From the NCBI RefSeq assembly GCF_003334315.1, contig NZ_QOWR01000034.1: a DNA stretch of 49,379 nt. The stretch is one strand, 5' to 3'. This document shows, in pieces, positions 33,096 to 46,887 of the stretch. This DNA comes from Escherichia coli (GTDB lineage: Bacteria; Pseudomonadota; Gammaproteobacteria; Enterobacterales; Enterobacteriaceae). The number at the start of each line of letters is the position of its first letter. Within the stretch, counting starts at the first letter, position 1. The notes beneath the pieces were generated by a model. It saw only the letters and a program-made list of their open reading frames with translations. It was not told the DNA's origin and made no database searches. The translations under genes were made by a program, and so were the position numbers.

Positions 33096-33196
33096 AATGA
33101 CTTCCTTTTCAAAATGACTGCAAATTATGGGTGCGGTTTAGAAAATACTCATAATTTAGCAGGCGTTATGTAAGAAAGTGTAACCCTGTATAAGTT

Positions 33197-43717: not shown

Positions 43718-45766
43718 ATGAACATGTTTTTTAGGCTTACCGCGTTAGCTGGCCTGCTTGCAATAGCAGGCCAGACCTTCGCTGTAGAAGATATCACGCG
43801 TGCTGATCAAATTCCGGTATTAAAGGAAGAGACGCAGCATGCGACGGTAAGTGAGCGCGTAACGTCGCGCTTCACCCGTTCTCATTATCGCCAGTTCGAC
43901 CTCGATCAGGCATTTTCGGCCAAAATCTTTGACCGCTACCTGAATCTGCTCGATTACAGCCACAACGTGCTGCTGGCAAGCGATGTTGAACAGTTCGCGA
44001 AAAAGAAAACCGAGTTAGGCGATGAACTGCGTTCAGGCAAACTCGACGTTTTCTACGATCTCTACAATCTGGCGCAAAAGCGCCGTTTTGAGCGTTACCA
44101 GTACGCTTTGTCGGTACTGGAAAAGCCGATGGATTTCACCGGCAACGACACTTATAACCTTGACCGCAGCAAAGCGCCCTGGCCGAAAAACGAGGCTGAG
44201 TTGAACGCGCTGTGGGACAGTAAAGTCAAATTCGACGAGTTAAGCCTGAAGCTGGCAGGAAAAACGGATAAAGAAATTCGTGAAACCCTGACACGCCGCT
44301 ACAAATTTGCCATTCGTCGTCTGGCGCAAACCAACAGCGAAGATGTTTTCTCGCTGGCAATGACGGCGTTTGCGCGTGAAATCGACCCGCATACCAACTA
44401 TCTTTCCCCGCGTAATACCGAACAGTTCAACACTGAAATGAGTTTGTCGCTGGAAGGTATTGGCGCAGTGCTGCAAATGGATGATGACTACACCGTTATC
44501 AATTCGATGGTGGCAGGTGGTCCGGCAGCGAAGAGTAAAGCTATCAGCGTTGGTGACAAAATTGTCGGTGTTGGTCAAACAGGCAAGCCGATGGTTGACG
44601 TGATTGGCTGGCGTCTTGATGATGTGGTTGCCTTAATTAAAGGGCCGAAGGGCAGTAAAGTTCGTCTGGAAATTTTACCTGCTGGTAAAGGGACCAAGAC
44701 CCGCACTGTAACATTGACCCGTGAACGTATTCGTCTCGAAGACCGCGCGGTTAAAATGTCGGTGAAGACCGTCGGTAAAGAGAAAGTCGGCGTGCTGGAT
44801 ATTCCGGGCTTCTATGTGGGTTTGACAGACGATGTCAAAGTTCAACTGCAGAAACTGGAAAAACAGAATGTCAGCAGTGTGATCATCGACCTGCGTAGCA
44901 ATGGCGGTGGGGCGTTGACCGAAGCGGTATCGCTCTCAGGTCTGTTTATTCCTGCGGGTCCCATTGTTCAGGTCCGCGATAACAACGGCAAGGTTCGTGA
45001 AGACAGCGATACCGACGGGCAGGTGTTCTATAAAGGCCCGCTGGTGGTACTGGTTGACCGTTTCAGTGCTTCGGCTTCAGAAATCTTTGCCGCGGCAATG
45101 CAGGATTACGGTCGTGCGCTGGTTGTGGGTGAACCGACGTTTGGTAAAGGCACCGTTCAGCAATACCGTTCATTGAACCGTATTTACGATCAGATGTTAC
45201 GTCCTGAATGGCCAGCGCTGGGTTCTGTGCAGTACACGATCCAGAAATTCTATCGCGTTAACGGCGGCAGTACGCAACGTAAAGGCGTAACGCCAGACAT
45301 CATCATGCCGACGGGTAATGAAGAAACGGAAACGGGTGAGAAATTCGAAGATAACGCGCTGCCGTGGGATAGCATCGATGCCGCGACTTATGTGAAATCA
45401 GGAGATTTAACTGCCTTTGAACCGGAGCTGCTGAAGGAACATAATGCGCGTATCGCGAAAGATCCTGAGTTCCAGAACATCATGAAGGATATCGCGCGCT
45501 TCAACGCTATGAAGGACAAGCGCAATATCGTTTCTCTGAACTACGCTGTGCGTGAGAAAGAGAATAATGAAGATGATGCGACGCGTCTGGCGCGTTTGAA
45601 CGAACGCTTTAAACGCGAAGGTAAACCGGAGTTGAAGAAGCTGGATGATCTACCGAAAGATTACCAGGAGCCGGATCCTTATCTGGATGAGACGGTGAAT
45701 ATCGCACTCGATCTGGCGAAGCTTGAAAAAGCCAGACCCGCGGAACAACCCGCTCCCGTCAAGTAA
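43718..45766 (+). CDS. prc: Tail-specific periplasmic protease Prc (Tsp), S41 family with PDZ domain
   Basis: Start trimmed to ATG 43718 (MNMFFRLTALAGLLAIAGQTFA signal peptide), 682 aa; begins 19 nt after proQ. Confidence 0.95.
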   Translation: MNMFFRLTALAGLLAIAGQTFAVEDITRADQIPVLKEETQHATVSERVTSRFTRSHYRQFDLDQAFSAKIFDRYLNLLDYSHNVLLASDVEQFAKKKTELGDELRSGKLDVFYDLYNLAQKRRFERYQYALSVLEKPMDFTGNDTYNLDRSKAPWPKNEAELNALWDSKVKFDELSLKLAGKTDKEIRETLTRRYKFAIRRLAQTNSEDVFSLAMTAFAREIDPHTNYLSPRNTEQFNTEMSLSLEGIGAVLQMDDDYTVINSMVAGGPAAKSKAISVGDKIVGVGQTGKPMVDVIGWRLDDVVALIKGPKGSKVRLEILPAGKGTKTRTVTLTRERIRLEDRAVKMSVKTVGKEKVGVLDIPGFYVGLTDDVKVQLQKLEKQNVSSVIIDLRSNGGGALTEAVSLSGLFIPAGPIVQVRDNNGKVREDSDTDGQVFYKGPLVVLVDRFSASASEIFAAAMQDYGRALVVGEPTFGKGTVQQYRSLNRIYDQMLRPEWPALGSVQYTIQKFYRVNGGSTQRKGVTPDIIMPTGNEETETGEKFEDNALPWDSIDAATYVKSGDLTAFEPELLKEHNARIAKDPEFQNIMKDIARFNAMKDKRNIVSLNYAVREKENNEDDATRLARLNERFKREGKPELKKLDDLPKDYQEPDPYLDETVNIALDLAKLEKARPAEQPAPVK

Positions 45767-45770
45767 TATC

Positions 45771-45802
45771 AATCAGGCACAAGAAATTGTGCCTGATTTT
45801 TT
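45771..45802 (+). terminator. Rho-independent terminator after prc
   Basis: AATCAGGCACAA, GAAA loop, TTGTGCCTGATT, then TTTTTT. Confidence 0.8.
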
Positions 45803-45880
45803 AACAGCGGCAAGATGCCGTAAATCAGATGCTACAAAATGTAAAGTTGTGTCTTTCTGGTGACTTACGCACTATCCAGA

Positions 45881-45909
45881 CTTGAAAATAGTCGCGTAAC
45901 CCATACGAT
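45881..45909 (+). promoter_or_regulatory. Sigma-32 (heat shock) type promoter of htpX
   Basis: CTTGAAAA, a 12-nt spacer, then CCCATACGAT resembles the sigma-32 consensus TTGAAA-N13-15-CCCCATnT; about 50 nt upstream of htpX. Confidence 0.5.
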
Positions 45910-45957
45910 GTGGGTATCGCATATTGCGTTTTGTTAAACTGAGGTAAAAAGAAAATT

Positions 45958-46839
45958 ATGATGCGAATCGCGCTCTTCCTGCTAACGAACCTGGCCGTAA
46001 TGGTCGTTTTCGGGCTGGTACTGAGCCTGACAGGGATACAGTCGAGCAGCGTTCAGGGGCTGATGATCATGGCCTTGCTGTTCGGTTTTGGTGGTTCCTT
46101 CGTTTCGCTTCTGATGTCCAAATGGATGGCATTACGATCTGTTGGCGGGGAAGTGATCGAGCAACCGCGTAACGAAAGGGAACGTTGGCTGGTCAATACT
46201 GTAGCAACCCAGGCTCGTCAGGCAGGGATCGCTATGCCGCAAGTGGCTATCTACCATGCGCCGGACATCAACGCTTTTGCAACCGGTGCGCGCCGTGATG
46301 CCTCTCTGGTTGCTGTCAGCACCGGTTTGCTGCAGAACATGAGCCCGGATGAAGCCGAGGCGGTAATTGCTCACGAAATCAGCCACATCGCCAATGGTGA
46401 TATGGTTACCATGACGCTGATTCAGGGCGTGGTGAACACCTTCGTTATCTTTATTTCCCGTATTCTGGCGCAGCTTGCCGCGGGTTTTATGGGCGGAAAT
46501 CGTGATGAAGGTGAAGAGAGCAACGGCAACCCGCTGATCTACTTTGCGGTTGCAACGGTTCTGGAACTGGTGTTTGGTATTCTGGCGAGCATTATCACCA
46601 TGTGGTTCTCGCGTCATCGTGAATTCCATGCTGATGCCGGTTCGGCAAAACTGGTTGGTCGCGAGAAAATGATTGCCGCGCTGCAGCGCCTGAAAACCAG
46701 CTATGAACCGCAAGAAGCAACCAGCATGATGGCTTTCTGCATTAACGGTAAGTCGAAATCGCTCAGTGAGTTGTTCATGACTCACCCGCCGCTGGATAAA
46801 CGAATTGAAGCTCTGCGTACGGGTGAATACCTGAAGTAA
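45958..46839 (+). CDS. htpX: Membrane zinc metalloprotease HtpX (M48)
   Basis: 293 aa; HEISH zinc-binding motif; sigma-32-like promoter upstream. Confidence 0.95.
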
Positions 46840-46854
46840 TATGAAGTAAATACT

Positions 46855-46887
46855 AAAAAGCGCGTCCTGATCGACGCGCTTTTTTTA
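46855..46887. terminator. Bidirectional terminator between convergent htpX and yebQ
   Basis: AAAAAGCGCGTC, loop, GACGCGCTTTTTTT. Confidence 0.8.

Follow-up and report, generated by a model that had tools for sequence, protein, structure and literature searches.

The question raised by this locus is which RNA polymerase and which regulators act on the sequence in front of htpX in Escherichia coli, where CTTGAAA and a C-rich segment resemble a heat-shock promoter and GTAAA pentamers lie further upstream. The DNA analysed here, which we call the window, is a stretch of 49,379 nucleotides (contig NZ_QOWR01000034.1 of assembly GCF_003334315.1). It comes from the proQ-prc-htpX / yebQ / kdgR region of the E. 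coli chromosome, with the gene order msrC-proQ-prc-htpX, a convergent yebQ, and then kdgR. The window carries an ordinary allele: the 501 bases around the promoter match many complete E. coli genomes at 100% identity, and the promoter region, annotated as lying between prc and htpX, is carried by 5,425 of 5,426 complete E. coli genomes, being at least 99% identical in 5,422 of them.

Taken as a whole, the element is very probably htpXp, the single mapped promoter of a monocistronic htpX, and its best explanation is sigma-32 together with an array of half-sites for CpxR~P. The promoter is real, already known and catalogued: nothing in it differs from the htpXp entry in RegulonDB (Kornitzer et al. 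1991, as cited), to which it is identical in sequence and in start coordinate. The features on which the argument draws are collected in Table 1. The prc stop codon lies at 45764-45766, and the terminator-like hairpin that follows it would insulate htpX against read-through from prc. A second hairpin lies beyond htpX; hairpins with T runs on either side of the gene fit a monocistronic unit.

Table 1. Features of the htpX control region and its surroundings (window coordinates; promoter positions are relative to the mapped start)
Feature	Position	Strand	Remarks
prc terminator-like hairpin	45771..45804	+	12-bp stem and T run
OmpR ChIP-exo peak P12	45804..45856 (NC_000913.2 1910702-1910754)		centre -86; PMC5438342 Supplementary Table 1
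Distal GTAAA pentamer	45820..45824	+	-96 to -92; weakly conserved as GTAAG/GTCAG/GTGAA
20-mer TTTACATTTTGTAGCATCTG	45826..45845	-	17/20 to the ompC C1 OmpR box; includes the proximal GTAAA as its reverse complement
Conserved block TGTAAAGTTGTGT, consensus TGTAAAGTTRTGT	45840..45852	+	columns conserved at 87-95% in 60 representatives
Proximal GTAAA pentamer	45841-45845	+	-75 to -71; within the block 45840..45852
Candidate CpxR box GTAAA-N5-GTCTT	45841-45855	+	centre -68; 3 mismatches
GTGACTTA	45860..45867	+	third phased GT and conserved CTTA; -56 to -49
-35 element CTTGAAA	45881..45887	+	-35 to -29
-10 region ACCCATACGAT	45899..45909	+	sigma-32 reading aCCCATaC (-17 to -10); sigma-70 reading TACGAT (-12 to -7)
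Transcription start site (A)	45916	+	PMC3415461 supplement; RegulonDB htpXp coordinate
42-nt leader	45916..45957	+	Shine-Dalgarno GAGG at 45942-45945
htpX coding sequence	45958..46839	+	ATG at 45958; 293 aa, protease HtpX
Hairpin flanked by A and T runs	46855..46886		bidirectional terminator-like; between convergent htpX and yebQ

A sequence-only reading of the window had proposed a sigma-32-like promoter here, and both of the elements that it named are present, with CCCATACGAT (45900-45909) beginning 12 nt after CTTGAAA. The 12-nt spacer that it gave is correct from CTTGAAA to CCCAT; if its upstream 8-mer CTTGAAAA (to 45888) is taken literally, the spacer is 11 nt. CTTGAAA agrees with the sigma-32 -35 element CTTGAA(A) at 7 of 7 positions. 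The sigma-32 -10 element, quoted in one source as CnATnT (PMC9866376), is matched in part: ACCCATAC agrees with CCCCATNT at 5 of the 7 specified positions, and the last T of the element is a C in E. coli. The pattern CTTGAAA-N10-16-CCCAT has one match on both strands of the 49.4-kb window, against 0.04 expected (4 of 100 shuffles contained a match). Cowing 1985 reportedly gave 13-17 nt as the usual sigma-32 spacer between CTTGAA and CCCCAT. At htpX the distance is 12 nt from CTTGAA to (A)CCCAT, or 11 nt from TTGAAA to the 8-mer of the -10 region as against 13 nt at lonp; Morganellaceae orthologues have 13.

The sigma-32 promoter of lon, taken from the same start-site dataset as the htpX start, is built in a similar way. 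There GTTGAAT-N13-CCCCATAT (-18 to -11) is followed by a sigma-70-like TATACT, just as CTTGAAA and ACCCATAC (-17 to -10) are followed by TACGAT at htpX, and lon CCCCATATACT aligns base for base with htpX ACCCATACGAT. The two promoters differ in the distance from TTGAAA to the run of C, 11 nt at htpX versus 13 at lon, and in the first C and last T of CCCCATNT, which are replaced in htpX.

An independent check on the motif is the position of the transcription start. A genome-wide 5'-RACE map gives a sole start for htpX, at NC_000913.2 1910642 on the minus strand, with 73 reads, a 42-nt leader and TACGCACTATCCAGACTTGAAAATAGTCGCGTAACCCATACGATGTGGGTA as the upstream 51-mer (PMC3415461). This base corresponds to A45916 of the window, an identity that we used as the basis for converting coordinates; from it there are 42 nt to the ATG, and it follows ACCCATAC by 10 nt (11 nt at lonp). 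The earlier reading had predicted a start 6-8 nt downstream of the -10 element, and the mapped base indeed falls 7 nt past its end. The cells used for the map were in exponential phase in M9 glucose without heat shock (PMC3415461), and the map is therefore silent on which sigma factor was used.

Evidence on the sigma factor comes from other sources. The RegulonDB list of RpoH promoters contains htpXp at the same start coordinate, with the evidence codes HIPP (human inference of promoter position), IDA (direct assay) and TIM (transcription initiation mapping) (PMC5493296 S2 Table). In addition, htpX is termed RpoH-dependent in a paper citing Kornitzer 1991, and the htpX gene of P. aeruginosa shows 3.1-fold induction by RpoH. 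The sigma-32 dependence of htpXp is thus supported by database evidence codes and secondary citations. Kornitzer 1991, Nonaka 2006 and Shimohata 2002 reportedly agree with this start and with the assignment to RpoH.

Genomic SELEX with RpoH holoenzyme did not recover htpXp (PMC5493296), a negative result that is uninformative because lonp and htpGp1 were missed as well. The supplement of a sigma-factor network study has no htpX entry (PMC3923258), the text of the RpoH ChIP-exo paper does not name htpX, and searches of literature text with the promoter or box sequence returned nothing relevant. A start for htpX of K. pneumoniae was absent from the part of the Kim 2012 supplement that was available.

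We then measured conservation of the core promoter. A degenerate pattern for the HtpX N-terminus identified 120 loci, a few of them in Pasteurellaceae and the others in Enterobacterales, and 101 of these keep xTTGA..CC.TA...T (T/A at the last position) in the E. coli register, with a modal distance of 79-81 nt from the -35 element to the ATG. For 60 genus-level representatives, the columns are conserved at 92% for C45881, 98% for A45886, 93% for both C45901 and C45902, 93% for T45904, 95% for A45905, 77% for A45908 and 90% for T45909, while the spacer between the two elements is unconstrained; the 100% conservation of TTGA in this set is partly due to the construction of the anchor. The conserved core of the -10 region thus consists of CC (-15/-14), T-12, A-11 and T-7. 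Three of the conserved features are typical of promoters for sigma-32 and not of those for sigma-70: a C preceding TTGAA, an A in place of C at position 5 of the -35 element, and a CC that lies two bases before TA. The conserved T-12, A-11 and T-7 suit either factor. The Morganellaceae, with CTTGAA(A/T)A-N13-CCTTATTTA, come nearer to the textbook -10 element. The original proposal of a sigma-32 promoter before htpX is supported by the mapped start, by the RegulonDB entry and by these sigma-32-type bases conserved across Enterobacterales.

The alternative that survives best is a promoter used mainly by sigma-70 (TTGAAA, 16 bp, TACGAT), with CpxR~P acting from about -68, probably through contact with the alpha subunit, and with sigma-32 in a minor or overlapping secondary role. 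This is compatible with dual use of the promoter, and we regard it as a serious contender that falls just short of evenly balanced. A sigma-70 scan of the region chooses exactly the same hexamers, TTGAAA-16-TACGAT, with 9 of 12 positions matched at -34 to -29 and -12 to -7, which is the canonical position for TACGAT relative to the mapped start; T-12, A-11 and T-7 are moreover the most conserved columns of the -10 region. The start is used in unstressed exponential culture, the biggest reported induction of the gene is Cpx-dependent (25-37x), and SELEX with RpoH holoenzyme alone failed to select the site. Wade et al. 2006 reportedly found extensive overlap between sigma-32 and sigma-70 promoters, which we also count in favor of this alternative. 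However, the sigma-70-like match is not significant alone, with 1 found versus 1.3 expected from shuffles of the 1.5-kb stretch, and the sigma-32-specific bases (C-35, A at position 5 of the -35 element, CC at -15/-14) are conserved at 92-98%. RegulonDB, furthermore, files htpXp under RpoH with direct-assay evidence. Judged from its sequence alone, the htpX site fits sigma-32 no better than it fits sigma-70.

Two other features near the start were considered. An imperfect inverted repeat, CCCAT..GTGGG, occupies 45900-45914 and covers the -10 to -2; in Citrobacter it is perfect (CCCATA-CGA-TATGGG). We rejected it as an operator over the -10/+1 region, since it is not conserved outside Enterobacteriaceae. 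For the leader, Rfam gives no match above threshold and the predicted fold is no better than that of shuffled sequences (z = 0.48), and RNA explanations were rejected on these grounds. In that fold the 5' end of the mRNA, UCGCAU (45917-45922), pairs with AUGCGA (45961-45966), which comprises the second AUG and an Arg codon. The start of htpX reads ATGATG, and its first ATG follows the Shine-Dalgarno sequence at an unusually long distance of 12 nt (45942-45960); other genera have comparably long spacings.

Upstream of the core promoter, in a region that was not used as an anchor for the alignment, conservation is again strong. A GTAAA exactly 40 nt upstream of the C of the -35 element is present in 53 of the 60 representatives and in 94 of the 101 loci. 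Ten bp downstream of this proximal pentamer, at 45851, is the GT of a second half-site (87% conserved), and a further GT at 45860 is conserved at about 60%, followed by CTTA at 45864-67 at 57-83% (T45865 83%, T45866 73%, A45867 77%). The CpxR consensus is quoted in the literature as GTAAA-N4-8-GTAAA. When we searched for GTAAA-N5-GTAAA with at most 2 mismatches, no match was found over the conserved block. The same search gave 61 matches in the whole window versus 38.6 +/- 6 in shuffles, probably a result of coding-sequence bias; copies with one mismatch lie in the htpX leader (45934-45948) and at the htpX stop codon (46836-46850).

In published expression data htpX is Cpx-induced in a cpxR-dependent manner: its mRNA is 25.2x in cpxA24 and 37.6x with NlpE overproduction, but 0.61x when NlpE is overproduced in cells deleted for cpxR (PMC9600279 Table 1). 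Like promoters with a CpxR box, htpX has a perfect GTAAA less than 100 bp upstream of its start, a GT again 10 bp downstream, and strong cpxR-dependent expression. It differs from them in its second half-site, which is degenerate (GTCTT in E. coli, with just the GT conserved), and in that its two perfect pentamers are N16 apart. Neither a footprint nor a ChIP peak of CpxR was found at htpX in the literature searched, and the main text of the CpxR ChIP-exo paper, which reports peaks at ompC, does not mention htpX (PMC7657598). The exact CpxR site at htpX, and any competition there between CpxR and OmpR, may thus be undescribed.

The block is also a candidate site for OmpR. The 20-mer on the minus strand shares 17 of its 20 bases with the C1 OmpR box of ompC (TTTACATTTTGAAACATCTA), a match unique in the window (0.01 expected), and the same segment matches the OmpR repeat motif GTTACATTTTGTTACAT at 14 of 17 positions. 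Because GTAAA is the reverse complement of TTTAC, the CpxR and OmpR readings of this sequence coincide. OmpR has been cross-linked to the region in vivo: under osmotic stress, the ChIP-exo peak P12 covers the 20-mer and is scored 'Rep' (repression), with a signal/noise of 1.89 versus 65 at ompC (PMC5438342). The conversion of this peak to window coordinates was checked at ompC, and there the peak given in the same table encloses the known boxes C1-C2. In an ompR knockout, htpX rises from 338 to 1274 FPKM, 3.8-fold higher (PMC5438342).

These data would also fit a region that is primarily an OmpR operator repressing htpX at high osmolarity, with an indirect effect of Cpx, which we consider unlikely. 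The peak is weak, and the large induction by cpxA24 or NlpE is cpxR-dependent. Loss of ompR also raises expression of spy and yebE, two other Cpx targets (PMC5438342). This suggests that the knockout is under envelope stress, which would activate Cpx, and the 'repression' of htpX by OmpR may therefore be indirect. Despite the likeness to ompC C1, the box at htpX is inverted relative to transcription and OmpR is reported to repress htpX, not to activate it; a centre between -86 and -68 is, in addition, unusual for simple repression.

A similar pattern is seen elsewhere in the window. On the minus strand at 33168-33184, GTTACACTTTCTTACAT differs from the OmpR repeat motif at 2 positions and lies inside OmpR ChIP-exo peak P13 (33139-33191), upstream of yobB-exoX (PMC5438342). 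The gene yobB belongs to the cross-regulatory set of the CpxR iModulon (PMC7657598), the same CpxR/OmpR pattern as at htpX.

The sequence-only reading had suggested that two GTAAA pentamers might form a CpxR site, while doubting their spacing. Both pentamers exist, at 45820-45824 and in the conserved block rather than at about 45828-45845, the first having been placed 8 nt off. The doubt was justified: the pentamers are N16 apart, outside both the N5 of the consensus that it cited and the quoted range of N4-8. A single CpxR dimer bridging GTAAA-N16-GTAAA is accordingly quite improbable, even though E. coli has an exact copy of each pentamer, with 21 bp (two helical turns) from centre to centre, and conservation exceeds background at both positions. 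At the offset of the distal pentamer, GT[ACG]A is present in 32 of 60 representatives versus a background of 2-12%, but the exact pentamer is found there in just 2 of 58, as against the near-invariance of the proximal one. Moreover, the strongest upstream conservation runs downstream of the proximal pentamer (GTTRTGT), away from the distal one. A better fit is given by a pair of neighbouring boxes, each combining a good 5' half-site with a weak 3' one, or by an OmpR-type 20-mer, and the functional unit would then be a set of phased half-sites of the OmpR family. The earlier suggestion about CpxR is thus partly right, and these results refine it without refuting it. The last alternative, a chance motif match that has no promoter function, has a negligible probability: short consensus matches are common, as the shuffles showed, but it is refuted by a mapped start at the expected distance, a database entry, and positional conservation across a bacterial order.

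We can now outline how sigma-32 and the CpxR~P array would work together at htpXp. RNA polymerase carrying sigma-32 (RpoH) would recognise CTTGAAA as the -35 element and the C-rich aCCCATaC as the -10 element, and would start at A45916 to give the 42-nt leader. Synthesis of the inner-membrane protease HtpX would thereby be coupled to cytoplasmic protein-folding stress, as reported in the literature. Upstream, from about -96 to -49, the putative half-sites of the OmpR family would be GTAAA at 45820, a degenerate GCTAC at 45831, GTAAA at 45841, GTCTT at 45851 and GTGAC at 45860. In envelope stress, CpxR~P would most likely act through these sites to activate the same core promoter, as the Cpx-dependent expression and the conservation suggest. 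It would bind the conserved GTAAA-N5-GT near -68, perhaps together with other half-sites of the phased set, and so recruit polymerase. OmpR could occupy the same array, published ChIP-exo data showing it on the region in vivo, and sigma-70 holoenzyme may serve Cpx-driven and basal transcription from the same start through TTGAAA-16-TACGAT.

A more ambitious version of this scheme, which we offer tentatively and think rather less likely to be right than wrong, makes the htpX control region an integration node conserved across the order. Its core would be read by both sigma-32 and sigma-70, and its half-site array would be shared or competed for by CpxR as activator and OmpR as antagonist, the central site being an inverted near-copy of ompC C1.

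As a discovery the promoter has little value, although it confirms that a reader given only the sequence can find a textbook heat-shock promoter. The comparison across genera brings a modest gain, in that the core promoter and the TGTAAAGTTRTGT box are kept at a fixed distance of 40 nt across Enterobacterales and the box doubles as a site resembling ompC C1 inside a published OmpR peak. Precise bases can now be named for mutation where heat-shock, Cpx and OmpR control converge on a membrane quality-control protease.

Some of the loci depart from the common arrangement. In Pasteurellaceae (loci L045, L081 and L101), Plesiomonas (L055) and endosymbionts (L099 and L051), a promoter with CTTGAA and a -10-like element is kept and the GTAAAGTT box is absent or degraded. 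In Providencia alcalifaciens BIGb0506 (L086:4274-4575), the htpX -10 region and the leader are parted by an insertion of about 250 bp relative to other Providencia species, which separates the gene from its conserved box and from its -35 and -10 elements. Yersinia spp. (L004, L014, L080 and L087) have htpX leaders of 140-220 nt versus about 42 nt, with tandem repeats of about 15 nt resembling AATTTGACTCAACAC.
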